From positions 1 through 62,898 of IMG/VR virus record IMGVR_UViG_3300005098_000046: 62,898 nt of DNA; one strand, written 5' to 3'. Every line of letters starts with the position of its first letter. The first letter of the stretch is position 1. This stretch comes from a virus. Its lineage: Duplodnaviria; Caudoviricetes. This document shows, one piece after another, positions 23,237 through 38,569 of the stretch. A program made the position numbers and the translations under genes. The notes under the pieces were generated by a model. It was not told the DNA's origin, did not search any database, and saw only the letters and a list, made by a program, of their open reading frames with translations.

Positions 23237-24025
23237 ATGCCGGTGTACACTTCTGGGGAACGGCGAGGGCTACCACGCCCATTATCGCGCAAGCGCGGCC
23301 ACGGTGTGTGGCGCATATTCGGCGAGCCGTGTGCGAAGGACTTCGTGCGCATCCGCGTGCCGGGCCTGCGTCGTTTGTATGTCTGTCACCGCAAGGCGGC
23401 GCCAGTGTTTGAAGCCGCTTTCGCCGAGCTTGAGCGCCAGGGGCTAGAGGACCTTATCGACCCCAAAGACTTCGACGGCTTCTATGCCTGTCGCCGGGTA
23501 AGAGGCGGTGCCAGCTACTCGCCTCACGCTTGGGCGATTGCCTTTGACTACAATGTTCACTGGCTGCACGTTGACGGCAAAGACCGCCGCACGAAGCGCT
23601 GGAATTATAGATGTACGCGCGAAGAGGTCCCGGAGCGCAACGTCTTGCTGGCGCACCGTGTCTTTCTGAAGTTCGGCATGTCGTGCGGCGTCTGGTGGAG
23701 CTTCATGGACCCGATGCATGTGGAGGTAACGGACATCAGCCTGCATATCGTCACCGGCGCGCCGATTGACGAGCGGACGTGGGCGCTGTTCCAGGAGCGC
23801 TTACGCCACGAGCAGCAAAGCAGCGGTCTGCACTGGCGTTACATAGACGGCAAGCCGCTCGTCACAACAACCGAGTCGCCGCCGAAAGTCGTGGTAGAAG
23901 GCCGCATCATTGACGGCCGTGTTTGGGTGCCGGTGCGCAAGCTAATGGAGCCGCTCGGCTATGACGTACTGGCGCACCGACTAAAGCAGGACGGCAAAGT
24001 CTATATCAGGAGGCGACCGCCATGA
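23237..24025 (+). CDS. Endolysin, M15 peptidase with C-terminal copper-amine-oxidase-N-like domain
   Basis: VCHRK, CRRVRGG, SPHAWAIAFD (SxH...D), DPMHVE; C-term IIDGRVWVPVRKLMEPLG. Confidence 0.88.
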   Translation: MPVYTSGERRGLPRPLSRKRGHGVWRIFGEPCAKDFVRIRVPGLRRLYVCHRKAAPVFEAAFAELERQGLEDLIDPKDFDGFYACRRVRGGASYSPHAWAIAFDYNVHWLHVDGKDRRTKRWNYRCTREEVPERNVLLAHRVFLKFGMSCGVWWSFMDPMHVEVTDISLHIVTGAPIDERTWALFQERLRHEQQSSGLHWRYIDGKPLVTTTESPPKVVVEGRIIDGRVWVPVRKLMEPLGYDVLAHRLKQDGKVYIRRRPP

Positions 24026-24231
24026 GTTGGTTCGTGAGGTGGTCGGTGAAGGGGATGTTGCGTGATTTGCTAGAAGACTACGCCGAGCACCAGGTCGATG
24101 AATTGCGCACATACTTGCTCAAGCGTGGCTGGGTAGGTGAAGATGGAGGCTTGCATATCCCAGAGGAAGATGTGGCGCGGTTCATCAAAGACTTCCTGCG
24201 CGGCATCATACACGTCCTACATCACGGATAG
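24022..24231 (+). CDS. Small hypothetical protein
   Basis: AGGAGG RBS, ATGA overlap, 69 aa. Confidence 0.6.
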   Translation: MSWFVRWSVKGMLRDLLEDYAEHQVDELRTYLLKRGWVGEDGGLHIPEEDVARFIKDFLRGIIHVLHHG

Positions 24232-24236
24232 CGCGC

Positions 24237-25592
24237 ATGAAAGTTGGCAAACAGCATATCCTGCAAGGCGACAGCGCGAAGCTGCTGCGCAGCGTGCCCA
24301 AAGATTCGGTATCGGCAATTGTGACCGACCCGCCGTATGGCTGGTCGTTCATGGGCAAAAACTGGGATGCGACGCTCCCGCCGCGAGAGGTTTTCGAGCA
24401 ATGCCTGCGCGTACTGAAGCCAGGCGCGCGGGCATTTATCTTTTGCGGCAACAGAGGCGACACACACTGGCGTATGCTCCAAATGCTGGAAGAAGTCGGC
24501 TTTGACGTGGGGTATCAAGAACTTTGCTGGATATACGCAAGCGGCTTCCCAAAGGGCATCAATTTGAGCAAGCAGCTTGACGGGCTCGTCGGCGCCGAAA
24601 GAGAAGTCGTCGCAGTGCGCCGCAAGCTGTCGTCGTTTACCAGTGACGGCAAAAGTCACTACGGGGTCGGCTATCGCGATTACGACGAAGACATCATCGA
24701 AATATCAAAACCGGCGACAGCCGCTGCTAAGCAGTGGGATGGATGGTATACCGGCCGGCAAGCGCTGAAGCCGGCACACGAGTACATCATTCAAGCCGTG
24801 AAGCCGTTCCGCGGAACGGCGGCGGAAAATGTCTTGCGCCACGGCGCCGGTGCACTGAACATCGACGGCACGCGCTTGCCGACAGATAACCCTACGGGCT
24901 GGCAGGGCGAAACTGGCTTCCGCTACACACACAACTTCAGCAAATATGGCGGCATGAAGCGCAAGAAGAAAGCCCCGCCGCAGAAAAGGAAGTATCACAA
25001 GTTCCAACCGGGCAGCGGGGGCTGGATGGTATCAGCACGCAAGGATGTTGACAGCAGCCATACCGACGAGACATACGTGCCACACGAAAACGGCCGCTTC
25101 CCAGCTACTGTGCTGGCGCAAGGTTGCCCGGACTTCATGCACTTTTTCGACGTAGACGGTTGGGCGGAGCAGCAAAAGTTGCCAAAGGACTGGGCAGATT
25201 TAGCACAGATAGGGATGCTGTATTGCCCGAAGCCTGTGCGCGGCGAGAAGGACGCTGGCTGCGAAGACTTGCCGAAGAAACGCCCCATAACCGACTGGGG
25301 CAAAGACGGCTATGCGCGGCCGAAAAGCGAAGACGAGATGGTCGCGCCGTGTGGCAATTTCCACCCGACAGTGAAGCCGGTGCGGATATGCGCATTCTTG
25401 ATAAAGCTGGGGTGCCCGGAAGACGGCATAGTACTGGACCCGTTTGCAGGCAGCGGCACGACGGCCGTCGCTGCTGAATTACTGGGCATAGCTGGCGTCC
25501 ACATTGAACTGTCGCCCGAATACTATGCCATCATGAAAGCGCGCGTGCGCTGGGCAGAAAAACAACGCGGGGAAGGCCAGAGGAAAGAATAG
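24237..25592 (+). CDS. N4/N6 DNA methyltransferase (beta class)
   Basis: IVTDPPY, LKPAHE, GRFPA, HPTVKP, VLDPFAGSGTT. Confidence 0.95.
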   Translation: MKVGKQHILQGDSAKLLRSVPKDSVSAIVTDPPYGWSFMGKNWDATLPPREVFEQCLRVLKPGARAFIFCGNRGDTHWRMLQMLEEVGFDVGYQELCWIYASGFPKGINLSKQLDGLVGAEREVVAVRRKLSSFTSDGKSHYGVGYRDYDEDIIEISKPATAAAKQWDGWYTGRQALKPAHEYIIQAVKPFRGTAAENVLRHGAGALNIDGTRLPTDNPTGWQGETGFRYTHNFSKYGGMKRKKKAPPQKRKYHKFQPGSGGWMVSARKDVDSSHTDETYVPHENGRFPATVLAQGCPDFMHFFDVDGWAEQQKLPKDWADLAQIGMLYCPKPVRGEKDAGCEDLPKKRPITDWGKDGYARPKSEDEMVAPCGNFHPTVKPVRICAFLIKLGCPEDGIVLDPFAGSGTTAVAAELLGIAGVHIELSPEYYAIMKARVRWAEKQRGEGQRKE

Positions 25593-25624
25593 GGCGCCCA
25601 GCGCTTAACAGCACCGGGCACCCT
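25582..25624 (-). terminator. Intrinsic terminator closing the leftward array
   Basis: Minus RNA AGGGUGCCCGGUGC-UGUUAA-GCGCUGGGCGCCCU then AUUCUUU; 14-bp stem whose three G-U pairs are A-C mismatches on the + strand. Confidence 0.65.
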
Positions 25625-25653
25625 TTCCGATGAGGAGGGTCGGCATGAGAACC
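25582..25653 (-). ncRNA. Predicted anti-TIR small RNA (sRNA1)
   Basis: Contains CAUGCCGACCCUCCUCAUCGG, the antisense of the shared RBS barcode plus AUG, followed by the terminator; ends approximate. Confidence 0.6.
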
Positions 25654-25884
25654 TTAGTCAGTATACCTCACAAGATGCTTGCCTGTCCACAACCACGACT
25701 TGCCAGTAATCTCCATATTGCCATCTCCGTTCTCTTTGCATTCGGCGACGACGTATTCATGCCGGGCTGCGCCGGTATCGCGCAGCCAGCGAACAGCGTC
25801 GCGCCGACTGCTTGCCACATACACTGGCTCGATGTCGTCTTCAAGCCATTTGTGGTGTGGGATGATAAACAGCAAGCGTTTCAC
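25654..25884 (-). CDS. Early-array hypothetical protein
   Basis: GTG start behind GAGGAGGG barcode; 76 aa. Confidence 0.7.
   Translation of the reverse strand: MKRLLFIIPHHKWLEDDIEPVYVASSRRDAVRWLRDTGAARHEYVVAECKENGDGNMEITGKSWLWTGKHLVRYTD
25660..25689 (-). promoter_or_regulatory. Candidate sigma70 promoter for sRNA1
   Basis: TGGACA (25689-25684), 18 nt, TATACT (25665-25660), inside the 3' end of the last array gene. Confidence 0.45.
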
Positions 25885-25980
25885 AGGAACCCCTCCTCGA
25901 AAGATTTGTGGGGACAAAGCCCCCAAGAATGCATTATGCAAGGCAATGCACTCTTGGGGGCCTTGCGGCCCCCTTGCGGG

Positions 25981-26571
25981 CTACTCGCCGCCAGCGTCGG
26001 GCGCTTCGGCGACTTTCCTTTCGCTTTCGCTTTCGTCATCGGAAGATGCGTCGGCGGCTTCTTCGCTGCTTGCCATCGCGCGTAGCGCTGCAGCCATTGC
26101 ATCCAAGCGCTCGTCGTATTTCATGTCAGCATAGTCAAGCGGATTGGGCACGTCGTCAGGCCAGAGCGCATGAACGTCAACGCCAGCAGCAGCTATGGTT
26201 TGAAGTTGCGGGATGGCGTTGCTGATTTCATAAGAGAAGCCGCCCACGATGGCGCTCCGTATACTCTTTGCCTTCTGCGCAAGCACTTCACGTGCGCGGT
26301 CTGGCAAAAGGGCGAGCACTGCTGCTTGCAATGGTACGGGCGCAATGTCGAACGATGTTAGCGCATCGACGATTTGGGCTAGCGTTGCGCTCCCAAAGCG
26401 CTGTATCATGCTTTCGCGCTCTTGAATGGGGACATCGAACCCTTCTTCTTGCATTGCATCGAAGAATACTTGCATCCAGACACGTGTCAGCTCCTGCAGT
26501 GCTTCACCGGCGCGTACAGCAAGCTGCAACTGAGCACCTTCTCGCATCTTGTACGGCAACCCGAAAGCCAT
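25981..26571 (-). CDS. Early-array hypothetical protein, acidic C-terminus
   Basis: 196 aa helical ORF with barcode RBS. Confidence 0.8.
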   Translation of the reverse strand: MAFGLPYKMREGAQLQLAVRAGEALQELTRVWMQVFFDAMQEEGFDVPIQERESMIQRFGSATLAQIVDALTSFDIAPVPLQAAVLALLPDRAREVLAQKAKSIRSAIVGGFSYEISNAIPQLQTIAAAGVDVHALWPDDVPNPLDYADMKYDERLDAMAAALRAMASSEEAADASSDDESESERKVAEAPDAGGE

Positions 26572-26672
26572 TTGGCTCCCTCCTCATCAAAGGATTTTGT
26601 GGAGCACAAAGCTCCCGTGGAAGCACAGCGCAAGCCATGCTTCCACGGGGGCCTTGCGGCCCCCGCAGCAGA

Positions 26673-27974
26673 CTACTCCTTTTCTTTCAAGACCGGCGCG
26701 CGTGGCATAACAACCGCACACGGCACACCATCGCCAGGTTCCATGCCGTATGGCGTGAACACGACCGCAGTCTTTGGCGTGACGACATGTATGGTGACTT
26801 CTTCAGTATCGAACGCAGCGAATAGCCGAAGCGCATCGCGGACAAAGTACGGGTTCAAGCCCACCTTCATATCGTCGCCTTCAACGATGGTGGCCGGCAA
26901 TACATGCACAGCCATGTCTTCTTGTGGCGTCATTGCTTCCATCCGCTGCGTGCGCAGCTGTAGTGTGCCGGCATTGGCTTCAAGCCACATGATGTCATCA
27001 AGAACATCATGTTTCTCGCCCCCGGGGCGCGCCTTCGCTTGCCATGCTGCATCTACTACATGTCGATGTTCCGCAAGCACATCAAGCGCTTGCTCTGTTG
27101 ATATCGTCCAGTGCGCGGTGTGCGTATCTGGCGAAGGCACAACGCGGGGCCACCAATCCGGCAGCTTGTAATCGCCGTGCCGCGCACGCACCCACCAATT
27201 GCCAGCGACGACATCAACGACGTTCTTGCCATGATATAACGTCGCTTCGCGAGCGCCTGTTTTGTATGCGGCTTCCAGCACGCCAAGCGCCTCGCCGACG
27301 ATAAGTATCGGGGCGTCGCCCTTCACTTCAGCAGGGATTGCGGCCAGCCGATACGTGTCGGTGGCAATCGCCGTGCCGTCTCTCATGATGTGCAAGTAGC
27401 GGTACTTCTCATATCCAGTAGCATCGCTTTCGCCGAGAAATGCGCGCAACGCGCCAGCAATCAACAGCAACGCCGAAGCGTCGCGCGGGCCGCCAGGCTT
27501 AGGCATAGCAAGCGGTTTTTCGTCGTTGTCTGTAAGCTCGACTTCGTTGTCGTTGACGGCCAGCACGTTCGCACTTGCGCGGATGATGAGCGATTCGTCC
27601 TTCACAGATGCGCCCTTCAGCAGCGCACGAAGGACTTTGGCAGGCACAGCTATCGTGCCAGTCTCGCATACATCCGCAGCGAATGCAACGCGCGCCTGGA
27701 CAGACTCGCGCGGGCTATCGGCGTGCACAATGAAGCGCGTGGCCGTTGCGGAGAGAAAAACAGTCTTGGGTCTGAGCACCGACAGCAGCTTGCGGATGTA
27801 GAGCAGCGCTCGGCTGCTCGTGGCAATTGATAGAGACTTGCCGCTTGGCAGCTTGTCGCGTGGCGGCCGCGCCACGGCGAGTGCTTGCGGCTTCGGCTTT
27901 GGCCTCGGCCTCAGCTTTTGTAGCGGGGTCGCCGGTTTCGCGCCGATGTTGACACGGAGTCTAAACGGCTTCAT
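26673..27974 (-). CDS. dnaN: DNA polymerase III beta sliding-clamp homolog (divergent)
   Basis: GTIAVPAKVL, AIATDTYRLA, GDYKLPDW, VGLNPYFVRDAL, AVVMPR match beta-clamp motifs; ~50 aa basic Pro-rich N-extension. Confidence 0.8.
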   Translation of the reverse strand: MKPFRLRVNIGAKPATPLQKLRPRPKPKPQALAVARPPRDKLPSGKSLSIATSSRALLYIRKLLSVLRPKTVFLSATATRFIVHADSPRESVQARVAFAADVCETGTIAVPAKVLRALLKGASVKDESLIIRASANVLAVNDNEVELTDNDEKPLAMPKPGGPRDASALLLIAGALRAFLGESDATGYEKYRYLHIMRDGTAIATDTYRLAAIPAEVKGDAPILIVGEALGVLEAAYKTGAREATLYHGKNVVDVVAGNWWVRARHGDYKLPDWWPRVVPSPDTHTAHWTISTEQALDVLAEHRHVVDAAWQAKARPGGEKHDVLDDIMWLEANAGTLQLRTQRMEAMTPQEDMAVHVLPATIVEGDDMKVGLNPYFVRDALRLFAAFDTEEVTIHVVTPKTAVVFTPYGMEPGDGVPCAVVMPRAPVLKEKE

Positions 27975-28081
27975 AGCGAAACCCTCCTCATCGTGATTTC
28001 TGGGGACTATGCCCCAGCCAGGATGTTAACGGCAGTGTTAACGCCCTGGCCGGGGCACCAGCCCCGGCGGCCCGTCGCTTA

Positions 28082-28282
28082 TCACTGCGCACGTGGAAAT
28101 GCATAGAAGTACACGGGCTTGACGCCATGTGGCGTCTGCAGTGCGCGCACTTCCAGCAGCACGCCACGTGCTTGTTCGCGTGGCGAAGCGACGACAATCC
28201 ATGCTGTATTCGGTTTTGCGCGGCGCACTTTGTCTTCCAGCTGGCGCCGTCGCGTATCCACATCGGTATCCAGCATATCCAT
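28082..28282 (-). CDS. Hypothetical protein
   Basis: 66 aa, GAGGAG RBS at 28293-28298. Confidence 0.6.
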   Translation of the reverse strand: MDMLDTDVDTRRRQLEDKVRRAKPNTAWIVVASPREQARGVLLEVRALQTPHGVKPVYFYAFPRAQ

Positions 28283-28289
28283 GCTCGGC

Positions 28290-28523
28290 TCACTCCTCTG
28301 CGGCCGGCACCGCAGCGTGCAGGTCACGCCAGTCACATGCGCCGCACTGCGGGCATGGCTCCGGCTTGCCGTCCGGCTGGGCACTCGGCGCATCTTCATA
28401 GCCGCACTGATTACACCGGCACCAGTAAATGCCTCCAAGCACACCGTTCTTCTTGAAGTGCCGCCAACCGCGCGAAAAGCTGATGGGGCGGCCGCACCAA
28501 ACACATGTTCTAATCGCTGGCAT
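28290..28523 (-). CDS. Cys-rich Zn-ribbon protein
   Basis: CVWCG, CRCNQCG, CPQCG. Confidence 0.7.
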   Translation of the reverse strand: MPAIRTCVWCGRPISFSRGWRHFKKNGVLGGIYWCRCNQCGYEDAPSAQPDGKPEPCPQCGACDWRDLHAAVPAAEE

Positions 28524-28782
28524 TCTGCTCACGCCCCTCAATGCGCGTCAGGCATTCTTGGCAGACAGTCCAGCCAGGCTGGGCGGGGTCGCCGGGGTCG
28601 TGCGGAACCCAGCGGCCACAGATGCCGCAATGACTGCCGTGATATTTAGTGGCATACACAGCAGCGGCGTTCCAGCCTGCATAATAACCGGAGCGCCAGA
28701 TGTGCTTGTGTGCCACAGCCACAGCGATAGCAGCGCCAACGAACCCGGAGAAGATACCACCAAGCCACGGAATCGTATCCAT
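28510..28782 (-). CDS. Membrane-anchored protein with CxxC pairs
   Basis: N-terminal hydrophobic helix, CGICG, CQEC; barcode RBS. Confidence 0.75.
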   Translation of the reverse strand: MDTIPWLGGIFSGFVGAAIAVAVAHKHIWRSGYYAGWNAAAVYATKYHGSHCGICGRWVPHDPGDPAQPGWTVCQECLTRIEGREQNASD

Positions 28783-28919
28783 GCTGAACCCTCCTCATCG
28801 TTTTGTCGCCGAGCGCATCGCTCGGCCAGAAGGTCGCTGTGCATTGACGGCCTTCTGGCCGAGCGGCCGCCCGAAGGCGGCCACTCGGTTGCAGCATAGG
28901 ACCAGGGAGGCAAGGCAAA

Positions 28920-29342
28920 CTACTTGGCCTTCTTCTGCTTGGCCTTCTCCGCGCCGTCGCCGTCGGCCTTCTTCGACTTAGCCTTCTTCGATTCGGCCTT
29001 CTTCTGCTTGGCCTTCGGCTCAGCCTTCTTGCCGTCATCAGTCTTCTTGGGCTTGGCTTCGGCTTCGGCCTTGGACTCATCCGGCGTTGCGGCAGCTTCT
29101 GGCTCCACGCCGATAATGCGCATAGCCTCTTCGGCGACAGCCGCGACAGCCGCTTGCACGTTCTTCTTCGGCAACTTGGGCGCCTTCTTCTTGCCAGCGG
29201 CCGCAGCGTACAGAAACACCAACAGGTCGAGCGCGGCTTCCACCAAGCCGGCTGCTATCGCAGCTTGATGGTCGGCCATCCCTTGGGCGAGCGCTTCCAA
29301 GTCTGCCAAGCGTTTCTCTTGCTCTTTCTCGGAGGCCATCAT
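28920..29342 (-). CDS. Protein with Lys/Ala-rich histone-H1-like tail
   Basis: C-term KKAEPKAKQKKAESKKAKSKKAD...KAKQKKAK; barcode RBS. Confidence 0.8.
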   Translation of the reverse strand: MMASEKEQEKRLADLEALAQGMADHQAAIAAGLVEAALDLLVFLYAAAAGKKKAPKLPKKNVQAAVAAVAEEAMRIIGVEPEAAATPDESKAEAEAKPKKTDDGKKAEPKAKQKKAESKKAKSKKADGDGAEKAKQKKAK

Positions 29343-29455
29343 GGACCCTCCTCATCTAAAGTAGTGACGCTATCGCGTCGGGACGTTGTAGCGTCCCCAG
29401 AAGGGCAACAGAGCGCAACCGCTGCCCTTCTGGGGGCGCACAGGCCCCCACGGTT

Positions 29456-29629
29456 TTACTCTTCGGCGCTGGCTTCGGCATCATCGTCGCCGATTTCTTC
29501 GCCAAGCGCTTCAGCCAGCTCTTCTGGCGTTTCAATATAGAAGAACGCCATGTCTTGCCAGTACTCGTCTGGGCACCGGTAATCCGGCGGGTCGGGCGGG
29601 ATAATCCATTCTTCGCCGACCATAGCCAT
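29456..29629 (-). CDS. 57-aa very acidic protein (not in the ORF track)
   Basis: MAMVGEEWIIPPDPPDYRCPDEYWQDMAFFYIETPEELAEALGEEIGDDDAEASAEE; TGATG-coupled to the upstream gene and fills the cassette exactly. Confidence 0.75.
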   Translation of the reverse strand: MAMVGEEWIIPPDPPDYRCPDEYWQDMAFFYIETPEELAEALGEEIGDDDAEASAEE

Positions 29630-30027
29630 CACTTCTTCCGCAAGCCGACGGTTATCTGCTCGCCGGGGTCAAGCGCCGCCGGCAGCCGCTTGCCAGCTTC
29701 AACAAGCTCGCGCACAAACGTGCGCAAACGCTGCCAGCTTGGCTTCGTTTCGATAAGGTCCAGCCGGCCGCGCTTTCGCAGCCACTTGACCACTTCGTCG
29801 GTCGTGTGGCCCTCAGCCAAGCGCGGATAGTACACCCGACTGATGTACACCGTGCCGACGCTTGTCTTGGCGCTCGTCAGCCCCTGCGCTTCAAGCGCTT
29901 CGCGGATTGCGGCAGCGACTTGCTCTTCTTCGGCAGCGACTGCAGACATTTGCGCCTTCAATTCGGCGCGCTGCTGCCGAAGTTCGGCGAGACGCTGTGC
30001 CAGTTCGTCAATCGTGGCTTCTGCCAT
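29629..30027 (-). CDS. Coiled-coil phage protein (Gp157/Gam-like architecture)
   Basis: N-terminal coiled coil then GLTSAKTSVGTVYI, KWLRKRG, GKRLP; barcode RBS; family call tentative. Confidence 0.6.
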   Translation of the reverse strand: MAEATIDELAQRLAELRQQRAELKAQMSAVAAEEEQVAAAIREALEAQGLTSAKTSVGTVYISRVYYPRLAEGHTTDEVVKWLRKRGRLDLIETKPSWQRLRTFVRELVEAGKRLPAALDPGEQITVGLRKK

Positions 30028-30145
30028 TGTCAGACCCTCCTCATCGTGATTTTAGAGCGCATCCGCGCTCCCCAGAAGGCATCAGCGGCAGAAGGCCAAT
30101 GCCCTCTGGGGAACGCGGCCAGGGCCGCATTCCCAGAAGCGCGTG

Positions 30146-30442
30146 CTACTGTTCTTGCTCTTCGCATTCAGCAACGCCGGTGGCGTACCCGTAGACGAAC
30201 GACAGAGCTTCTTCGACGCTGCCCCACACGCGGTGAAACGGCTTGCCGTCTTTGACCAACCAGACGCGCTTGATGCCGACTTCGCGGTAATCCCAATTTA
30301 CCCAAAACTCCAAGCCCAGCCGCGCAGCATAGAACGCTTCGTCGGCGGTCACAAGCAGAAACGCCTTGCCACTATCGGGCAACCGCCGTTCAAACACGAA
30401 GGGTACAAACTGCGCATCGAGCACATCCTTGTCGGTAATCAT
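30146..30442 (-). CDS. Early-array hypothetical protein
   Basis: 98 aa, barcode RBS. Confidence 0.75.
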   Translation of the reverse strand: MITDKDVLDAQFVPFVFERRLPDSGKAFLLVTADEAFYAARLGLEFWVNWDYREVGIKRVWLVKDGKPFHRVWGSVEEALSFVYGYATGVAECEEQEQ

Positions 30443-30579
30443 GCCGAACCCTCCTCATCGTTAGGCTCGGAGCGCATCCGCGCTCCCCAGAAGGCACTCG
30501 TGGATGAATGCCCTCTGGGGAGCACGGCGGAGTCGGGGCCAGCTCCGCCGCGCTCCTTTGAGCCGGGTGACACAGGCTG

Positions 30580-30810
30580 CTACCACTCTTTGCTGCCGAT
30601 TACGGTAGCTATCACGTTGATGATAACACGCTCGCCGTTCGGCAACTCAGCGCGCGTTTGCGCTTGCCAACCGACGCTACCGGTCTTGAACTCGCGCGCC
30701 TTGCCAAGCGGCACGGTGACGCGCGTCTCGCCGATGCTTACGTCAGCGTGGCCGATAGCATCAAGCTCGGCAATTCGCTCTTCGCGTGTCTTTTCCTTCT
30801 TGCCAGCCAT
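30580..30810 (-). CDS. Small beta-rich hypothetical protein
   Basis: 76 aa, REFKTGSVGW...TVIGSKEW; barcode RBS. Confidence 0.75.
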   Translation of the reverse strand: MAGKKEKTREERIAELDAIGHADVSIGETRVTVPLGKAREFKTGSVGWQAQTRAELPNGERVIINVIATVIGSKEW

Positions 30811-30895
30811 TTCGGACCCTCCTCTACGGAGATTTGCGAGTCATAGCGACCCCCACTGGGTACCCGGCCTTTCGCCAGATACCCAGGTGGGGTAG

Positions 30896-31207
30896 CTATG
30901 CAATCGCCGCCTTCGCGGCTTGCTCGGCACGCTTCTTCTCCAAGCATTCCTTGCAAATCTGCCCGACGCGCGGCCAGTCGCGCACTGCAGGATTGTTGCA
31001 GTGCTTGTAGCCGCAAATGCGGCGATGCTCGCCACGGTAATATCCAGCCAGCCAACCGCCGCACGCTCTGCAGCGCCCGGACATGTTGGCGCACTGCTCA
31101 AGCCCACAGTCCAGGCACCGCGCGCGTTCGTGGCACCGTTCTCCAGTGCCGTTGACGCGGCCGCACTCAGGGCAACAATTCTTGCGATACCACTCTTCGC
31201 GTGTCAT
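30896..31207 (-). CDS. Multi-Zn-finger Cys-rich protein
   Basis: CPECG, CLDCG, CRACG, CGYKHC, CKEC; barcode RBS. Confidence 0.8.
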   Translation of the reverse strand: MTREEWYRKNCCPECGRVNGTGERCHERARCLDCGLEQCANMSGRCRACGGWLAGYYRGEHRRICGYKHCNNPAVRDWPRVGQICKECLEKKRAEQAAKAAIA

Positions 31208-31342
31208 CGTGGACCCTCCTCATCGTGATTTCTGGGGCACAGCCCCAGCCAGAACCTTGCAACGGTGCAGGGTTCTGGCCGGGGCGCCGGCGGCGGGGGG
31301 GCAACCGCCGACACCCCAGCTGGGAGGAGGGTAGGCAGTAAG

Positions 31343-31663
31343 CTACTTCAGCGCTTCGCGGAAGGCACTCGGCCCACGCGCAAGCGTGCCGTCCGGCTCG
31401 ATGCGGAACGTCGCCACGCGGCGGCACGCGCCGCCCATCTTATCTGGCGTGCGCTCAACAAAGACGAAAACGCTGCCGGTCACGGCGCCATCGGGCTGCT
31501 GATGACCAATCTCGGCGAAGTAAGCCTCGCCGTCTGGCGCTATCCAGCTATCAGCAACCGGCTTGCCGTCAAGCAAGTCTGGCTGATAGCCAGGCAGCTT
31601 GGGGATGCGCGCCATGATTTTAGTGAACGTGTCAAGCGCCGCCTTCGTTGCGGAGTATCCCAT
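31343..31663 (-). CDS. Early-array hypothetical protein
   Basis: Start moved to ATG 31663 behind barcode; 106 aa. Confidence 0.75.
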   Translation of the reverse strand: MGYSATKAALDTFTKIMARIPKLPGYQPDLLDGKPVADSWIAPDGEAYFAEIGHQQPDGAVTGSVFVFVERTPDKMGGACRRVATFRIEPDGTLARGPSAFREALK

Positions 31664-31781
31664 TTGTTTCGCCCTCCTCATCGGTGAATGCCAAGGCACA
31701 AGCCTTGGCCGGAGCCTCGCCGCTTGACGAAGCTCCGGCCAGGGCGCCGGCTGTGCGCCAGCACCTTGGCGTTCGCGTGGC

Positions 31782-32225
31782 TTACATACCGAGATGCTTG
31801 CGATAGATAGCCACCAGGTCCACTTCGGACCATTCGTATTCTTCGGCAGCATCGCGCAATTCCTTCAGCGCTTCTTCTTTGCTGTCGTAGATGGCCTCTT
31901 CGTCCATGATTTTCGGGTCAAAACGCAGCAAGCTGCCAGGCCACTCCACGATGGACCATACGCCGCCGCCCATGTCGTACAAGAAAGCATAGCCATAGTG
32001 CGAATAGAACACGGGGCCAGCGGCCGCGCATTCCACCAGCATCGTCCAGTCGAAAAGCTCATAGTCTTCGACCAGCTCTGCGGGCAGCGGCGCACTGGCC
32101 TTCAGCACGTTGCCACGCATCCGCTCTGAGTCGGCGACTTCAGCATCAATGCCGTGCTTGCGGCACGCATGAAGCAAGCCGCTAGGAATCGGCCGTGCTG
32201 CACTTACGTAAATGCGCTTCTCCAT
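31782..32225 (-). CDS. Early-array hypothetical protein
   Basis: Start moved to ATG 32225 behind barcode; 147 aa. Confidence 0.75.
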   Translation of the reverse strand: MEKRIYVSAARPIPSGLLHACRKHGIDAEVADSERMRGNVLKASAPLPAELVEDYELFDWTMLVECAAAGPVFYSHYGYAFLYDMGGGVWSIVEWPGSLLRFDPKIMDEEAIYDSKEEALKELRDAAEEYEWSEVDLVAIYRKHLGM

Positions 32226-32330
32226 CTTGGGACCCTCCTCGCTTCGGTTTGGAGCGTATTGCACGCCCAGCTTGCCTGCCGCACATCACGACAAGCAAGC
32301 TGGGGGCGCAAGCGCCCCCAGGGGCCTCTG

Positions 32331-32573
32331 CTACATCCGGCGAAGATAGAACATCAGCAGCTGGCTTGCGGCCGCCTTGGCGACTTGCTCGCTCTTATCG
32401 CCGGGCCGCCCGCGCACAACGATGCGATACGTGGGGAAGAACCAGCCCAAGTCCAGCTTCTGCACCCAGATGCCGCCAAAGAAAAGCTCATCGCCGGTGT
32501 GCATGGCCCGCAGGCACTTGGCCAACGCATCCACGTCCACAAAGTCTTTGACCTTCGGCTTGAATGTCTGCAT
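32331..32573 (-). CDS. Early-array hypothetical protein
   Basis: ATG 32573 behind barcode; 80 aa. Confidence 0.75.
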   Translation of the reverse strand: MQTFKPKVKDFVDVDALAKCLRAMHTGDELFFGGIWVQKLDLGWFFPTYRIVVRGRPGDKSEQVAKAAASQLLMFYLRRM

Positions 32574-32673
32574 CGCTTGACCCTCCTCACCGGTTTTGGG
32601 GTTCATAAGAACCCCACCAAGCCACAGGTATCCGCCCATGCCTTGGTGGGGGCCTTATGGCCCCCTCGCTTCA

Positions 32674-33219
32674 CTACGTGCGGTCTGCCAGGCCGAACGC
32701 AGCCTTGACAAAGCCTTCGTAGTCGCCGCGCTTCAACGCTTCGCGCGCACGTGCGCGCTCTTGCTCAATCTCGCGGCGCGCTTGCTCGTGTTCTTCCAGC
32801 GCTTCCTTGCACATCGCCAGAAAGCGCTCTGTGGCCGCCTTGCGCGAAGCATACAGCCGAACCCACATCTTGCTGCGGCCGCGCACGTGAAACACGCGGC
32901 CAGGCTTGGCATTCTTCGCTGTGGGTGTAGGTTCATACTCCAGCGCATACGGGTCACGCTCGCGCTCACCAAACTCCATCACAGCAAGCTGGTGGCCGAC
33001 CAGATACAGCACGCGGCCAGCGACTCTCATGCAGAGAATCGCCGGCGCATGGCCGGTATTGACACAGCCGGGCGCAGGCTCCGGCCCAGCCAGGCCGGTG
33101 CCAGGCTCAAGGCTGGCCGCTTCTACTTGCTGCCGGTACTTGGCAAGCTGCTCTTCCACGCTGAGCGGCACACGCGCGCGATATTCGCGGCGGCGCTTGC
33201 GGCGCTTTTGCCGTTTCAT
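32674..33219 (-). CDS. Early-array hypothetical protein, very basic N-terminus
   Basis: MKRQKRRKRRRE; 181 aa; barcode RBS. Confidence 0.75.
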   Translation of the reverse strand: MKRQKRRKRRREYRARVPLSVEEQLAKYRQQVEAASLEPGTGLAGPEPAPGCVNTGHAPAILCMRVAGRVLYLVGHQLAVMEFGERERDPYALEYEPTPTAKNAKPGRVFHVRGRSKMWVRLYASRKAATERFLAMCKEALEEHEQARREIEQERARAREALKRGDYEGFVKAAFGLADRT

Positions 33220-33324
33220 CGCTTGACCCTCCTCATCGTTTTTGGCGCACCAAGTGCGCCCAGTCTACGCAGACACAGAACGCATCTGCGTAGACTGGGA
33301 GCACACAGCGCTCCCAGAACGCGC

Positions 33325-33756
33325 CTAATCACGGGGCCACGGCTCATCCATCCACGCAAGCTCCACAGCCTTGACCAGCTTGCGCCGGCACACCCACTTC
33401 TTGTAGTCGGCAGGTCTGCGCATCACAGTCAGCAAGTACTTCAAGCGCGAGTCACGCGAGCGGCGCGGCGGCTTGACCACAAACAGCACCAACATACCGC
33501 GCAACGGCGCCAGGTAGTAGCCTTCGGTGGTGCCAGTGTGCCAATTGAACAATTCGGCAGCCGCATCAGCAATCGTGTGATGCAATTGCATGGGGCCTTT
33601 GCTGTACCCACATTTGGCACAAGCGCCAGCGCCTTCTTCATCAGCCAAGTACTGCGCGCCGGTATCCGGCTCGCATACCCAGTGCGTGGACCATGTATGG
33701 CCACACCGTGGGCATAGGAACTCAACCTTCTCGCCTTGGACATGCCAAGATAGCAT
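33325..33756 (-). CDS. Zn-ribbon protein
   Basis: FLCPRCGHTWS...CAKCG; ATG 33756 behind barcode. Confidence 0.75.
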   Translation of the reverse strand: MLSWHVQGEKVEFLCPRCGHTWSTHWVCEPDTGAQYLADEEGAGACAKCGYSKGPMQLHHTIADAAAELFNWHTGTTEGYYLAPLRGMLVLFVVKPPRRSRDSRLKYLLTVMRRPADYKKWVCRRKLVKAVELAWMDEPWPRD

Positions 33757-33857
33757 TGTTGGACCCTCCTCACCGGACATTTGGGCTCCCAAGAACCCCA
33801 TCAGCCTGCCAGTGAAAACCGACAAGCTGATGGGGGCCTTGCGGCCCCTTCCGCCAG

Positions 33858-34268
33858 CTACACAATCGCATTCGGCAATATCTCGCGCTTCAGCGCTTCA
33901 ATCGCCATCTCCTTGTTGGTGTAACCGCCCCATTCAATGCCACGGCCAGCGACGCTGGCGAAGCGCTCAATCTCTTCCTTGTCCATCACGTAGAACGTCC
34001 ACAGCCACGTGCCATCGACATGCACGTTCACAATCACATAGAACGAGCTGCGGGGACGCACCGCACGCTGTACTTCGCGCATCACTTCGCCGCGCGTCGT
34101 CAGCACTGGTGGCGCGTCGTGCATGTGGAGACAGCATGGGCATCGCAAAACATCGTCGGGGCTATTATCGCCGACTTCGAGAATGTACTTGTCATCCTCG
34201 AAGTACAGCCCCACCGACCAAGGGCGCCCACACGCCTTGCATAAAAATACAATCCGTGCAACCTTCAT
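33858..34268 (-). CDS. Zn-ribbon protein (probable paralog of neighbour)
   Basis: FLCKACGRPWS...CPCC; barcode RBS. Confidence 0.75.
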   Translation of the reverse strand: MKVARIVFLCKACGRPWSVGLYFEDDKYILEVGDNSPDDVLRCPCCLHMHDAPPVLTTRGEVMREVQRAVRPRSSFYVIVNVHVDGTWLWTFYVMDKEEIERFASVAGRGIEWGGYTNKEMAIEALKREILPNAIV

Positions 34269-34354
34269 GTCAGACCCTCCTCACCGGATATTTGGGCCAT
34301 AGCGGCCCCCGCTGGGCGCTCAGGGCATCAGCCCCAAACGCCCAGATGGGGCGG

Positions 34355-34669
34355 CTATACCACCATGTCGCTCAGCAACGCACGAGCGATGATAACAGCA
34401 GCCTTCAGCGACGCCTCGGCGCGCTTGCGCGGGTCATCACCCTTGCGGATGATGAAGCGCTCCGTAGTGTTGCAACCGCTCTCGCACTCCACCACATAGC
34501 AGTCGGGCTGCTGCTCGACAACGATGTCGCTGCTTCGCGTGCGCGCGAAGCAGCGCTCGCCGTCAATCGTGGTAACCAACGCCGCCAGCCGGCCGATAGC
34601 TTTCTCCAGCTCGCGGGTCGCCGCTTCAAAAAGCTCGTCGTGCTCGCCATCTTTCCACACGGCACTCAT
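34355..34669 (-). CDS. Early-array hypothetical protein
   Basis: ATG 34669 behind barcode; 104 aa. Confidence 0.75.
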   Translation of the reverse strand: MSAVWKDGEHDELFEAATRELEKAIGRLAALVTTIDGERCFARTRSSDIVVEQQPDCYVVECESGCNTTERFIIRKGDDPRKRAEASLKAAVIIARALLSDMVV

Positions 34670-34772
34670 TTTGTTGACCCTCCTCACCGGATGTTTGAGT
34701 TCACAAGAACCCCACCAAGGCGCATCGCTCGTCTACGCCTTGGTGGGGGCCTTGCGGCCCCCCATTAAGAAC

Positions 34773-35165
34773 CTACAGGAGAGCGGCGTGCGCCATAGCT
34801 TCGCGCACTATGTTCTCGACCTTGCTGCGCAGCACGATGCGGCGCTTCCGCTCGCCGGGCGTCACGGTGCTCGGCGCCGGCCGGCCGCCGACGCCGCCGC
34901 GGTCAACGCGCAGGTCTGCGCACTGCTTGACCAGCAACACCGCCGCTTGCCATGCAGCCCACATCGCATCGCCATCGCCATTGAAGCGCGTCAATTCATC
35001 GGCATCTTCAACCACGAAAATGCTTTCATCTTCGCGCTTCACAATGAACGGGCCGACCTTGGCATACGTGCCAACCGGCATGGCAAGCAACCGTTGCTCC
35101 GTGCAAGCAATCGCAGCATCGATGACCGCCCACAGGTTCTCGATGCCAACAGCAGCATACTTCAT
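34773..35165 (-). CDS. Early-array hypothetical protein
   Basis: 130 aa, barcode RBS. Confidence 0.75.
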   Translation of the reverse strand: MKYAAVGIENLWAVIDAAIACTEQRLLAMPVGTYAKVGPFIVKREDESIFVVEDADELTRFNGDGDAMWAAWQAAVLLVKQCADLRVDRGGVGGRPAPSTVTPGERKRRIVLRSKVENIVREAMAHAALL

Positions 35166-35275
35166 CGTGGACCCTCCTCGCAGGAATTAGGCAGGTTATC
35201 CTGCCCCACCATGCAACCCGTCACAGGCTGCATGGTGGGGCAGGGCAGCATTCGCTGCCCTTGCCCATCGCCGCA

Positions 35276-35584
35276 CTACGACGCACGCTCGAACCATTCA
35301 ATGCGCATCTTGCCAGGCAAGCTATCCACTTCGCCGGCCAAGAACGCGCAGCCATAAGCGCCAGCCGCCTTCACCGCAGCGTCAAGCGCGGCCAATTCTT
35401 CGCCGCTGGGCTTGACAGCCGCAATGTAATCGTGAATGGCCTCGTCATAGGGGCGCTGGTCTGGCTCAATCACAAAGTCGAATCCCCCGCTGATGGGATT
35501 CCATTCCCACCAGCCTTCCAGCACAGCAGCCTTCAGGACGAAACCCTTCGGCGGCCGCTTGCTATGCTTAAGCAATGTAGTCAT
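35276..35584 (-). CDS. First gene of the leftward array, hypothetical
   Basis: ATG 35584 behind variant barcode CCGATGAGGAGTG; 102 aa. Confidence 0.75.
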   Translation of the reverse strand: MTTLLKHSKRPPKGFVLKAAVLEGWWEWNPISGGFDFVIEPDQRPYDEAIHDYIAAVKPSGEELAALDAAVKAAGAYGCAFLAGEVDSLPGKMRIEWFERAS

Positions 35585-35706
35585 GGCGCTCACTCCTCAT
35601 CGGTATTGGGAAGCCTTGTGGCCTCCCTTGACGGTCATGGCATTCAGCCAGGGCCGTCAAGGGAGACCACCTTGCGGTGGCCTTCCCCCGATGAGGAGGA
35701 GGGTCC

Positions 35707-36153
35707 TTTGCGGAGATTCGGATTATCAGCAGCCGCCAGAAGAGCGTCGTCTATCTGGCGACCTTGCGCGCGCACTCCGCTAGGCTTTACCGTCACGCGC
35801 GTTGCCAGCCAGAGCTACTGGCTATGTCAAGGTGCGCACCAGCCCCACTCTGTGGATAACCATCTACGACTCTGGTGAGTCGCGGCGCGATGATTATCGG
35901 CAATTCGCCTTGGCCACAGAGTCTCGGCATCGCTGCGATATGCCACCACGCTATCCACCAGCCTTTCGTGCCAACGCACTCAGAACGCAAGCACGCCACG
36001 CTTGCAGAACCTTGTGCGACTCCGACTATGATTGTTGCCGCTCTGCCGCGCGTCAATCGACGCGCGTCCAGCACCGTTCGGTGACCGAGTCGCGCCAGTT
36101 CGCGCTCTGTGTGAAGGTTCGCCGTCGCTGGCGCGCTTGCGCGCGCCATTGAC
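35707..36153 (-). ncRNA. Predicted long structured leader/ncRNA
   Basis: No convincing CDS; nested stems on the minus strand starting with GGCGCGC-GCAA-GCGCGCC just after a promoter. Confidence 0.5.
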
Positions 36154-36159
36154 ATGATA

Positions 36160-36188
36160 ATGCTAATCGACGCGCGCGAATATGTCAA
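36160..36188 (-). promoter_or_regulatory. Sigma70-type promoter for the leftward array
   Basis: TTGACA (36188-36183), 17 nt, TAGCAT (36165-36160); flanked by inverted repeat ATTGACAT (36148-36155) / ATGTCAAT (36182-36189). Confidence 0.7.
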
Positions 36189-36279
36189 TAATCTATGTGT
36201 CTGGAATGTGTCAAATGCAGAATCAAATCCGTGTCGGCTCTGTGGAGTCTATGTTGCCAATGGTCACAGCGCTGTCACA

Positions 36280-36470
36280 AAAGACGGCGCCAGAGACGGC
36301 CGTAGACGCCGTAGACGGCGCTTAGGCGCCGCTCTGTGGCCACGTAGACGCCGTAGACGGCATAGACCCAGAGACCCAGACACGCACAGACGCAGAGACG
36401 GCGCGCTGGCGCTCTGTGGCCACGTGGACGCCGTAGACGGCAGCCCCGGCGCCCCCCCCCGGCGCCCGGG
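36280..36470. repeat. Iteron-like AGAC/CGTAGACG repeat cluster
   Basis: 33-bp direct repeat 36330-36362 / 36410-36442 (1 mismatch); CGTAGACG at 36301, 36310, 36343, 36352, 36432; C9 run at 36452-36460. Confidence 0.85.
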
Positions 36471-36493
36471 CCGAAGCAAAATCTGCTTGCCGC

Positions 36494-36523
36494 TTGACAA
36501 GCGATTGCTAATCTGCTACTAAT
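36494..36523 (+). promoter_or_regulatory. Candidate rightward sigma70 promoter (replication operon)
   Basis: TTGACA at 36494, 17 nt, TG-n-TACTAA(T); -10 imperfect. Confidence 0.5.
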
Positions 36524-36560
36524 ACAGCACCAAAACCGCAGTCAACAGGAGGCAAATGCT

Positions 36561-36815
36561 ATGCGTATCGTGCCGACAGAAACTATGAAACAAGCAATTG
36601 AGGCCATCGCCCGGAAAGAAGCCAAGCGCCCCGAACAGATTGACTTCCGTAAATGGCTCGTCGATAGGTTCAATGAACACGGAAGCGTCTACGCCGTGTG
36701 GCGTATCCTCGATACCGATTACGGCATACACTTCAGCTATAACACCGTCCGGGTATGGTACATGCAGCTGCGCATCAATATCGAGCGCCCGAAGGCTGTC
36801 GTGGTGGAGGAGTAA
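36561..36815 (+). CDS. Small putative HTH DNA-binding protein
   Basis: CAGGAGG RBS; SVYAVWRIL...FSYNTVRVW helix-turn-helix-like. Confidence 0.6.
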   Translation: MRIVPTETMKQAIEAIARKEAKRPEQIDFRKWLVDRFNEHGSVYAVWRILDTDYGIHFSYNTVRVWYMQLRINIERPKAVVVEE

Positions 36816-36817
36816 CC

Positions 36818-38569
36818 ATGCGCCGCGCGGTGTATGGCACTCAGGCATCGCCCGATGGCCTGAGTACAATCGTATGGCTCCGCGTGCCTTACAGCAAAGC
36901 CAACCTTGAAGCCGTCAAGTCCATCCGGCTGAATGGCGTCAAGCCACGGTGGAGCAAGTTCGCACGCGCGTGGTGGTGGCAAGTGTCGCCGTCAGACGCC
37001 GGTGACATCATCGATGCCATCCGCGCAACCTGGCCGGCAGAGTATAGCTCGGAGCAACTGGAGATTGAGCCGCCGCCGACCGCCGAACCGTTGCGGGTCC
37101 AACCAGCGACGTATAGCTGGCGGCGCAAACCGTATGAGCACCAGCGCATCGCCGTGGCCGCTATCCTGCAGCGCCCGGATTTCCTGCTGCTGGACGAGAT
37201 GGGCCTCGGCAAAACACAAACCGCCATCGACGCCGCGTGCGTGCTGTTGGAGGAAGAGAGAATTGAGCGGGTCGTCATCCTGACACCGCTCTCCGCAGCG
37301 CCGGTCTGGGCACGCGAGATACGCACAGTTGCATGGGTAAACCCCACAGACATCGCTCTGGTACGCAATAACCCGCCAGCCAAACACCCAGACCACATCC
37401 GCGGACTGAGCAACCGCGAATACAGAAGCCTTCAACTTCGCAAGCGCGCCACATGGACGATATGCCATTACGACGTTGTGCCCCGGCACCGTGGAGAGCT
37501 TGGTGCGCTCTGCAACGGCGCGCTGCTTATCTGCGATGAAGCCCACAAACTGCGGAACCCACGCGGTGTTATCAGCAAAATTGTGCTGCGCGAGTTCAAG
37601 CCGAGCCGCTTGTTGCTTATGACCGGGACACCTATCGCCGACAAGCCCGACGACATCTGGGCGCTGGCTTCGCGCGTGGCGCCGTCGGAGTTCGGCAACT
37701 GGTATACGTTCATGCAGAGATACGTAGTTTTTGCCAAGACGCGCGATGGTCGGAAGTTCCCGGTCGGGTATCGCAATCTCGACGACTTGCATCGTCGGCT
37801 TCAAACGATTAGCCTTCGGCGAAGGAAAGCGGAGTGCCTCGACCTGCCGCCGAAGATTTACGAAGTGCAATACGCCGAGTGGGGCAAGCAACAACAGCAA
37901 GCCTATACGCGCGTGCAAGAAGGCTTGCGCGTGCTGATGCAAGACGGCAGCAAAGTCGTGTCGGTGCAAGCCCCGGAGGTGCGCGCGCAACTCTTGCGCT
38001 TGCAGCAGATTGCTGACGGCTATCTGAGCGATGCCCCCGGCCGGGAAGTCTGGTTCGAGGACGTCCCGAAGTGGTCACTATGCATGGAGTTAGTGCGCGA
38101 GATAGCGCAAGGCGAAAAGGTTGTACTATGGTCGCGCTTCCGCCCGCCGGTGATTAGGGCAGCCGAAGAACTTGCGGACCTTGGCGCCGAAGCCATCTAC
38201 GGCGATGTGAAGCGCGACAAGCGCGACGAGATAGTCGCCGCATTCAATGCCGATGATGATAGGCGCGTGCTTGTCTGCCAGGTACACACCGCGTCCTTGG
38301 GGATGAACCTCCAAGTGGCCAGCACAGCTATTTTCTATGACCTGTGGTGGGCGCCTGGCCAAGTGGCGCAAGCCGAGGACCGCATTCACCGCATCGGCAG
38401 CAACAAAGTCGTTATTTTGCGTCTGGCATTGCGTAATAGCATAGACGAGCATGTACAGCAAATGCTTCAGCGAAAGGGGGAATGGGCAGACGCCGTGCTT
38501 GGTGAACAGCAGTGGACGCGTGCATTCGCGCGCGACTTCTTGCAGCGGCTGTTAGAGCCGCCAACATAA
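36818..38569 (+). CDS. SNF2-family (DEAH) helicase
   Basis: DEMGLGKT, CDEAH, MTGTP, LRLQQI, GMNLQ, QAEDRIHRIG. Confidence 0.95.
   Translation: MRRAVYGTQASPDGLSTIVWLRVPYSKANLEAVKSIRLNGVKPRWSKFARAWWWQVSPSDAGDIIDAIRATWPAEYSSEQLEIEPPPTAEPLRVQPATYSWRRKPYEHQRIAVAAILQRPDFLLLDEMGLGKTQTAIDAACVLLEEERIERVVILTPLSAAPVWAREIRTVAWVNPTDIALVRNNPPAKHPDHIRGLSNREYRSLQLRKRATWTICHYDVVPRHRGELGALCNGALLICDEAHKLRNPRGVISKIVLREFKPSRLLLMTGTPIADKPDDIWALASRVAPSEFGNWYTFMQRYVVFAKTRDGRKFPVGYRNLDDLHRRLQTISLRRRKAECLDLPPKIYEVQYAEWGKQQQQAYTRVQEGLRVLMQDGSKVVSVQAPEVRAQLLRLQQIADGYLSDAPGREVWFEDVPKWSLCMELVREIAQGEKVVLWSRFRPPVIRAAEELADLGAEAIYGDVKRDKRDEIVAAFNADDDRRVLVCQVHTASLGMNLQVASTAIFYDLWWAPGQVAQAEDRIHRIGSNKVVILRLALRNSIDEHVQQMLQRKGEWADAVLGEQQWTRAFARDFLQRLLEPPT

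Follow-up and report, generated by a model that had tools for sequence, protein, structure and literature searches.

We propose that a 62,898-bp phage genome from the IMG/VR virus collection (hereafter the window, that is, the whole stretch of DNA analysed here) carries, at the very end of a leftward array of 18 small genes, a short segment antisense to the start-site sequence that these genes have in common. That sequence, a 14-nt motif built around a Shine-Dalgarno (SD) core, is referred to here as the barcode; its reverse complement, the anti-barcode, lies between the stop codon with which the array ends and a terminator-like hairpin, and a putative promoter is found just upstream of it. 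Judged from the sequence, the chance that the anti-barcode is a functional trans-acting RNA, possibly with a cis-acting role as well, falls somewhat short of even, and its reading as antisense control that occludes the ribosome-binding sites (RBSs) of the array is plausible, though unproven. The features on which the argument turns are the following.

25884-35603, minus strand: array of 18 small genes, each with the barcode and a structured spacer in front
25654-25884, minus strand: gene 19, with which the array ends (76 aa; RBS GAGGAGGGG, start codon GTG)
25660-25689, minus strand: putative sigma-70-like promoter TGGACA-18-TATACT in the 3' end of gene 19, matching the consensus at 10 of 12 positions
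25627-25647, minus strand: anti-barcode CAUGCCGACCCUCCUCAUCGG, the reverse complement of the 14-nt barcode, a spacer and AUG
25591-25624, minus strand: hairpin of an intrinsic terminator, with a 15-bp stem (10 G-C pairs) and a 4-nt loop
25581-25590, minus strand: U-rich tail AUUCUUUCCU, directly 3' of the hairpin
24237-25592, plus strand: DNA methyltransferase gene, convergent to the array, its stop 36 nt short of the plus-strand barcode copy
25645-26085, plus strand: open reading frame (ORF) behind the plus-strand barcode copy, called by the source's gene caller (146 aa)
30439-30468, minus strand: start region of gene 12 (98 aa), the best predicted partner of the anti-barcode

The barcode and its inverted copy

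The barcode consensus CGATGAGGAGGGTC stands 5-8 nt ahead of start codons. With up to two mismatches allowed it has 15 matches, against 0.31 expected and a maximum of two in 100 shuffled sequences, and 13 of the 15 are on the minus strand, spanning 27980-34689; the two on the plus strand are an exact match at 25628-25641 and one with two mismatches at 35692-35705. The heptamer GAGGAGG occurs 18 times on the minus strand of the genome, 17 times within 25,898-35,179, where every occurrence is an array start and precedes the ATG (in one case GTG) of a small ORF by 5-8 nt. Gene 1, with the variant motif CCGATGAGGAGTGAGC, brings the array to 18 genes, which is the number of cassettes counted in an initial annotation made from the sequence alone; its coordinates for them are offset by an immaterial 2 nt or so. 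Exact array copies of the barcode number only 3 of the 18, the other 15 deviating from the consensus, and the flanks CGAT and GTC are conserved around the SD core. The motif is thus asymmetric, contains an SD core, lies near the starts of many non-structural genes and is conserved over more than the part that can pair with 16S rRNA, as expected of a start-associated sequence (SAS), the type of motif described for cluster K mycobacteriophages.

The 18 genes with a GAGGAG-type start encode products of 76-433 aa. In PHROG, 16 of the 18 were without a match, a clamp-like protein and one other product being matched, and a Pfam scan of ten array proteins gave no match; the 433-aa product resembles a DNA polymerase processivity factor. 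We would regard the array as early from its position only, since it starts at a divergent non-coding region next to replication genes. Two observations on its composition may be added. A 66-aa ORF on the minus strand (28082-28282), in the long gap before gene 16, has the RBS variant GAGGAGTGAGC as in gene 1 and may be a further cassette. In a crude gene list, TAG is the stop codon of 14 of 17 minus-strand genes as compared with 10 of 42 plus-strand genes, and TAG may be part of the cassette boundary (array stops at 25654-35593).

The match at 25628-25641 is the sole exact barcode copy on the plus strand and is followed by GGC and an ATG at 25645, so that the minus strand here reads as the reverse complement of barcode and AUG, as the initial annotation had it. 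The anti-barcode occupies the 61-nt gap between the stops of the methyltransferase gene (25592) and of gene 19 (25654); it begins 7 nt past the latter, with its ACCCUCCUC core 13 nt past it, and is unpaired in both the minimum free energy and the centroid fold of a 79-nt RNA. The adjoining hairpin has a folding energy of -31.9 kcal/mol (z -7.4) on the minus strand versus -19.0 kcal/mol (z -3.9) on the plus strand, and it is strand-specific because three of its pairs are G-U on the minus strand only; the annotated stem folding well on that strand alone is hence recovered, at 15 bp. It is the top terminator-like match within 25000-37000, and the succession of a G+C-rich hairpin and a U-rich tract (tail ATTCTTTCCT) is that of an intrinsic terminator. 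No Rfam family, including the phage c4 antisense RNA, matched the window at the gathering threshold, and of eight sub-threshold matches in 25300-36600 none fell at 25580-25690.

The promoter-like site, likewise found where it had been annotated (reading from 25689 to 25660), has its -10 hexamer 12 nt upstream of the anti-barcode, and a predicted start near 25653 would give an RNA of about 68-70 nt ending at the terminator shared with the array mRNA. Sigma-70-like sites that match the consensus at 10 or more of 12 positions number seven on both strands of the 62.9 kb, the simulated mean being 2.7, and by our arithmetic the chance of such a site within 40 nt of the anti-barcode is about 0.002. 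Several of the other six (e.g. 43431, 36188 and 59222) lie upstream of genes or in a divergent regulatory region.

Whether the anti-barcode lies in a 3' untranslated region (UTR) depends on which strand is coding at this point. Over 75 codons, gene 19 has a sense-versus-antisense codon score of +19 to +22 bits, as compared with a median of 24.9 in windows of confident genes, and its AlphaFold2 single-sequence model is of high confidence, with a mean predicted local distance difference test score (pLDDT) of 91.1 and a predicted template modelling score of 0.80; this alpha/beta fold had no Foldseek match in the PDB at E <=0.001. By codon score and fold, gene 19 is a real coding gene. The plus-strand ORF scores -20 to -22 bits, and values of zero or below occur in just 1 of 149 75-codon windows of confident genes; its pLDDT is 44.6 with no residue at or above 70, it has no PHROG match, and its frame would run across a canonical structured spacer and, antisense to gene 18, over another 105 nt. 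The proteins called for the contig nevertheless include precisely the 146-aa product of 25645-26082, probably a false positive to which the barcode copy gave rise. With gene 19 coding and the plus-strand ORF most likely non-coding, the anti-barcode lies in a true 3' UTR. More generally, a strong RBS-like antisense element can lead automatic gene callers to false ORFs.

Predicted pairing in trans and in cis

The anti-barcode pairs at all 14 positions with the barcodes at 30033, 31212 and 33225, with one mismatch at 27980, 28787, 29344 and 30447, and with two at 31670; the four CCGGUGAGG variants (32579, 33762, 34273 and 34676) retain a helix of 15-16 bp through one G-U pair, and the remaining cassettes pair over 8-12 bp. 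The most extended complementarity is that to the gene 12 start (30442), where 21 of 22 positions pair across SD and AUG with one bulge, for a duplex energy of -49.4 and a net energy of -30.2 kcal/mol. The pairings claimed in the initial annotation for individual cassettes, including the G-U variants and the bulged gene 12 duplex, were all reproduced. When a 32-nt seed was hybridised to the 18 array start regions, duplex energies ranged from -23.8 to -49.4 kcal/mol, and the 11 best duplex sites genome-wide, the self-complement aside, are array start regions. Net hybridisation energies, calculated for 100-nt target contexts with the cost of unfolding included, ranged from -11.4 to -30.2 kcal/mol for the 18 array starts, and the best of 41 plus-strand gene starts reached -12.4 (median -5.4); 15 of the 18 array starts beat every plus-strand control start. 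Array genes thus rank at the top of the in-silico targets, as had been anticipated, and the segment has in silico what is expected of the seed of a trans-acting small RNA (sRNA), namely accessibility and complementarity to target starts. An argument from wobble, that A-to-G and C-to-U variants of the barcode keep the pairing, was set aside as too weak, at most two or three independent events being involved.

We envisage the following mechanism. The anti-barcode would be made with the leftward array mRNA, as its 3' UTR, and probably also as a separate RNA of about 68-70 nt that runs from the putative promoter in gene 19 to the terminator common to both. The unpaired 5' portion of the element, CAUGCCGACCCUCCUCAUCGG, would mimic the 16S rRNA anti-SD end with the flanks of the barcode added to it; it would pair with the barcoded start regions, best with that of gene 12, compete with ribosomes and lower translation, and the outcome would be negative feedback on the array or its shut-off. 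That the promoter fires, and that the RNA accumulates, acts in trans and represses, is what we infer from this arrangement. The interpretation given in the initial annotation is thus borne out in part, for the anatomy of the site and the ranking of its targets, and the off-switch or timer that it envisaged stays a proposal.

The anti-barcode is not the only anti-SD segment of the array. The heptamer GAGGAGG is found on the plus strand at three loci only (25632, 31324 and 35693/35696), all of them in the non-coding parts of the array; since such parts account for about 4% of the genome, the chance of all three falling there is about 8e-5 by our arithmetic, and the anti-SD segments can therefore be regarded as placed features of the array. 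The two further segments are:

35683-35705, minus strand: anti-barcode in the gene 1 leader, an inverted barcode with a 3-nt insertion that forms a helix with the gene 1 RBS
31324-31332, minus strand: anti-SD ACCCUCCUC, 10 nt past the gene 9 stop, with the gene 10 SD as predicted partner

For the leader copy a long-range helix with the gene 1 RBS (35593-35613) is predicted, extended by GGGAAG/CUUCCC and leaving the SD with a mean probability of 0.13 of being unpaired. The gene 9/10 segment is predicted to pair with the gene 10 SD (31213-31221) across three hairpins, at a probability of 0.00 of being unpaired, and the spacer of gene 15 (start 28782) opens with a weaker GCCUCCCUGGUC that also pairs with the gene 15 SD. 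In these models, then, the RBSs of genes 1 and 10 are predicted to be sequestered in cis by anti-SD segments that close helices, and the layout of genes 9 and 10 would fit translational coupling, in which the helix would give way whenever a ribosome terminates on the upstream gene. The spacers themselves, mostly of 85-140 nt, are made of long G+C-rich hairpins (25885-35760, minus strand), several having GGGGGCCGCAAGGCCCCC in common. They are more stable as minus-strand RNA in 16 of 18 cases, with summed energies of -1020 versus -890 kcal/mol and 69 versus 34 G-U pairs, and are therefore RNA-level elements of the transcript; they could serve as processing, stability or coupling elements. No Rfam family fits them, the sub-threshold matches being microRNA-precursor-like only.

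Weighing the alternatives

A functional anti-barcode RNA is favoured by the exact match of the copy to the consensus, the promoter-like site in register with it, the terminator tuned to one strand, the placement of every anti-SD heptamer in non-coding parts of the array, and the separate parallel in cluster K mycobacteriophages. Several points weigh against the trans-acting reading. RNA data were looked for, and no sequencing run was listed. The pairing energies follow trivially from complementarity, so that they speak for feasibility rather than function. The putative promoter was found after looking for one, as a match to the consensus within coding sequence, and such a match does not in itself speak for initiation; its -35 (TGGACA) is weak and its spacer is 18 nt long, and the U tail AUUCUUUCCU is interrupted by a C. 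As a 3' UTR, the segment would supply one anti-barcode per 18 barcodes. No close relative from which conservation or covariation could be read was found in the phage records, IMG/VR, metagenome and genome collections searched. In the parallel system of cluster K mycobacteriophages, the corresponding loop is kept in just five of nine aligned phages. To these must be added the evidence that speaks for particular rivals. As the sister anti-SD segments are predicted to close helices in cis, a cis role or a relic are serious rivals to a trans-acting sRNA.

As a relic, the segment would have no function of its own, the terminator hairpin alone being of importance; it would have arisen by inverted duplication of a cassette start, that of gene 12 being the nearest, or be what is left of a cassette since lost. 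An inverted duplication would account for the match of CGATGAGGAGGG(T)TCGGCATGA to the gene 12 start at 21 of 22 positions, an ATG included that an antisense seed could do without; the plus-strand order of hairpin, TTTC, barcode and ATG resembles the 3' part of a spacer, and with no relative found, selection on the copy cannot be argued from conservation. Yet the copy is an exact consensus, from which 15 of the 18 copies in the array depart, the adjoining hairpin is tuned to the minus strand by its three G-U pairs, opposite to what an inverted spacer would show, and the promoter-like site is in register. Moreover, all CCUCCUC heptamers on the sense strand of the array lie in spacers, and the analogous inverted copy of cluster K has been retained, a 52-nt hairpin segment recurring at >=80% identity in 112 phage records. 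We therefore consider a relic rather unlikely. An inversion between opposite barcodes was also considered as the origin of the copy and dropped, as it would put the non-coding plus-strand ORF behind a minus-strand barcode and explains nothing. We regard as unlikely, too, and a degree more so, that the segment acts in cis only, pairing with the RBSs of the last genes on the same mRNA and so tuning their translation or creating a double-stranded cleavage site, or, in a variant of this reading, that it is the upstream half of a translational-coupling spacer like those in front of genes 1 and 10. In folded transcripts of 401 and 1093 nt the anti-barcode does pair with the RBS of gene 19 or gene 18, at probabilities of 0.9-1.0, action on the next RBS in just this manner is predicted for the array's other two anti-SD segments, and the 3' copy and the gene 9/10 element are similarly placed after a stop codon (13 versus 10 nt) and both contain UGCC-N-ACCCUCCUC; in addition, the icaR mRNA provides a precedent, as far as the consulted part of that study goes (PMC3868564). 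This reading is at odds with the lack of any RBS downstream of the 3' copy and with a complementarity to gene 19's own RBS of just 8 bp, for which the full 14-nt consensus and the CAU are unneeded, and it leaves the promoter-like site without a role.

The two remaining explanations concern the DNA and the opposite strand. The barcode might be a DNA-level site for protein binding or recombination, of which the opposite copies at 25628 and 35689 mark the borders of the array. Plus-oriented copies do stand at both array ends, and DNA-binding proteins have been proposed for the extended SAS of cluster K in excerpts of two papers (PMC3203893; PMC11373665), where the proposal concerns the adjoining inverted repeats and not the SASs themselves. 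A DNA site would, however, not account for the fixed distance of 5-8 nt to start codons, the strong SD within the barcode, the better folding of the spacers as minus-strand RNA and their excess of G-U pairs, or the additional flanking complementarity of the leader copy to the gene 1 RBS, which is a feature at the RNA level; moreover, no integrase or recombinase was seen among the proteins scanned, a subset of those of the genome. We hold this explanation to be very improbable. Slightly less credible still is that the plus-strand copy is a true RBS from which a protein of up to 146 aa is made from the ATG at 25645. It is true that a perfect barcode is followed there at the correct spacing by an ATG, that the frame is open to 26085 and that the source's gene caller called the ORF. 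The codon score, the pLDDT of 44.6 as compared with 91.1 for gene 19, the lack of a PHROG match and the course of the frame across a spacer and antisense to gene 18 all oppose it, as does its place behind a hairpin that ends the plus-strand operon. The initial annotation had named translation of this ORF as the alternative to its own reading, and codon statistics and folding disfavour it.

The genome, its relatives and known systems

The window has direct terminal repeats and is rated 100% complete. Its proteins include a tape-measure protein, a terminase, a portal, an SNF2-type helicase and a primase, and the phage, which is uncultivated, is therefore siphovirus-like; a scan for tRNA genes found none. 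The G+C content is about 59%, and the sign of the GC skew flips near 26,000 and 36,000, which marks off the leftward gene block from the rightward blocks on either side. Of the sigma-70-like sites in this area, the best is the candidate main leftward promoter:

36160-36188, minus strand: TTGACA-17-TAGCAT, candidate main leftward promoter

The divergent regulatory region around it (36028-36442) contains three 33-nt repeats, at 36288, 36330 and 36410, and a 12-nt repeat, AATCGACGCGCG, at 36055 and 36165, within both leftward promoter-like sites; these repeats may be operators or iterons. Elsewhere, a 379-aa protein (42227-43366, minus strand) has several excisionase/MerR-like helix-turn-helix repeats, and a sigma-70-like site (43431-43403) lies immediately upstream of its gene.

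Relatives of the phage are remote. Megablast of 24000-30000 against phage records gave no match, the clamp-like protein had no relative in IMG/VR or metagenome contigs and only itself in a set of 5.8 billion proteins, the terminase had no match in genome contigs, and the helicase, searched as a single protein, had none in IMG/VR; the closest helicase homologues are 36-38% identical. Among profile-based loci a relative was encoded in 523 of 591 candidate IMG/VR stretches and in 476 of 589 metagenome stretches, and of these loci the best 80 each were kept, all <=31% identical. A pattern search for the barcode gave single scattered matches only, in 20 IMG/VR contigs and 14 genome contigs. Start-site motifs of their own were noted in two unrelated IMG/VR contigs: AGGAGCACGACAATG in L099 (2234-12121; 14 sites) and AAGGAGATTGAGATG in L078 (4602-5949; six sites), each at <=3 mismatches and on one strand. 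Start-site tags are therefore not rare in phages; antisense copies of these two motifs numbered zero within the 17-18 kb examined, which is too little to serve as a control.

The closest parallel is that of the cluster K mycobacteriophages, in which Pope et al. (2011) described, in the part of the paper drawn on here, 13-bp SASs before 11-19 non-structural genes, and a single opposite-orientation copy in four cluster K1 phages that the same part leaves unexplained (PMC3203893). According to an excerpt of a later paper, late transcription appears to initiate in the cluster K intergenic region that holds the inverted SAS (PMC11373665), and the portions consulted of papers from 2024-2025 still call the function of SAS unknown. 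The initial annotation knew of no description of the present architecture in a phage; in view of the inverted copy reported in 2011 this has to be qualified. The antisense reading is ours, and no proposal of an antisense role for SAS was found in the literature searched for one. In Mycobacterium phage Anaya we find 16 forward SAS sites and one reverse site. The latter stands about 155 nt beyond a terminator, in the 385-bp gap that follows the last SAS gene, on the strand whose transcript would contain the anti-SAS; this gap is common to 182 phage records. Across nine aligned cluster K phages the anti-SAS CCTCCTATCCCC is kept in five, altered in three and deleted in one, and RNAalifold places it in a hairpin loop, the stems being paired in 96.5% of cells, versus 30-49% in slid controls, with 6 of 16 pairs changed on both sides. 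The conserved non-coding region of about 330 nt to which it belongs (Anaya 39690-40067, L109, and L110-L117) contains several covarying stems and resembles a structured RNA, so far undescribed, located where the late operon begins.

The likeness to the window extends to an asymmetric motif of 13-14 nt with an SD core that is conserved beyond 16S rRNA pairing, to its position (3-9 nt before the starts of the 11-19 genes in cluster K, nearly always in one orientation), to structured or inverted-repeat sequences upstream of a subset of SASs, and to one opposite-orientation copy away from gene starts. The motifs differ, GGGATAGGAGCCC there as compared with CGATGAGGAGGGTC here, as do the host lineages, and the inverted copy of cluster K resides in the hairpin loop of a non-coding region and not in a 3' UTR directly before a terminator. 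With no homology of the window phage to cluster K detected, the barcode is an analogue of SAS and not a member. The layout of barcode and anti-barcode thus recurs in two unrelated lineages, the siphovirus of the window and the cluster K mycobacteriophages. By analogy, such control might be a general phage strategy in which early or non-structural genes are tagged with one extended start-site motif and a single RNA with its reverse complement, encoded where the early region borders on the next, switches off the whole set, an extension that we consider doubtful.

If the trans-acting reading is correct, one short transcript would control some 18 genes via a phage-specific tag, as an RNA counterpart of the RegA protein of T4, and the early programme would be timed in a compact manner. 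The purpose of SAS, left open in the consulted parts of papers from 2011 to 2025, would be explained as well, and SAS would gain a testable function, in mycobacteriophages that are used in therapy and genetics. The pair of tag and anti-tag could furthermore serve synthetic biology as an orthogonal translational switch. Antisense occlusion of RBSs, 3'-UTR-derived sRNAs and anti-SD 3' UTRs are known already; a single RNA aimed at the shared start-site tag of a whole phage array would be new.

Among the known systems, 3'-UTR-derived sRNAs such as DapZ and MicL have their promoter in the upstream coding region and share the terminator of the mRNA. The candidate described here resembles them in its promoter-like site in the last codons of gene 19, a seed right after the stop codon and a terminator in common with the mRNA; DapZ and MicL, however, are host-encoded and act on unrelated mRNAs, whereas the targets predicted here are the upstream genes of the same operon. 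The sRNAs of the RsaE/RoxS type pair a C-rich seed with the SDs of many mRNAs, and a CCUCC-type seed over the G-rich SDs of several targets is likewise seen here, although specificity would come from the barcode flanks of one phage array and not from generic SD pairing. In the icaR mRNA of Staphylococcus aureus, as given in an excerpt of the study, an anti-SD motif in the 3' UTR pairs with the SD and blocks translation (PMC3868564). That interaction is monocistronic and in cis, in contrast to the 18 possible partners and the possible separate transcript of the window. Finally, sar of P22 and c4 of P1 are phage antisense RNAs that occlude RBSs, and RegA of T4 is a protein that represses many early mRNAs. 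As in these cases, the phage of the window would block the translation of its own early genes at the RBS, and c4, too, is an RNA from the operon of its target; sar and c4 have one target locus each, and RegA is a protein, whereas here a single RNA would address the starts of an entire array.

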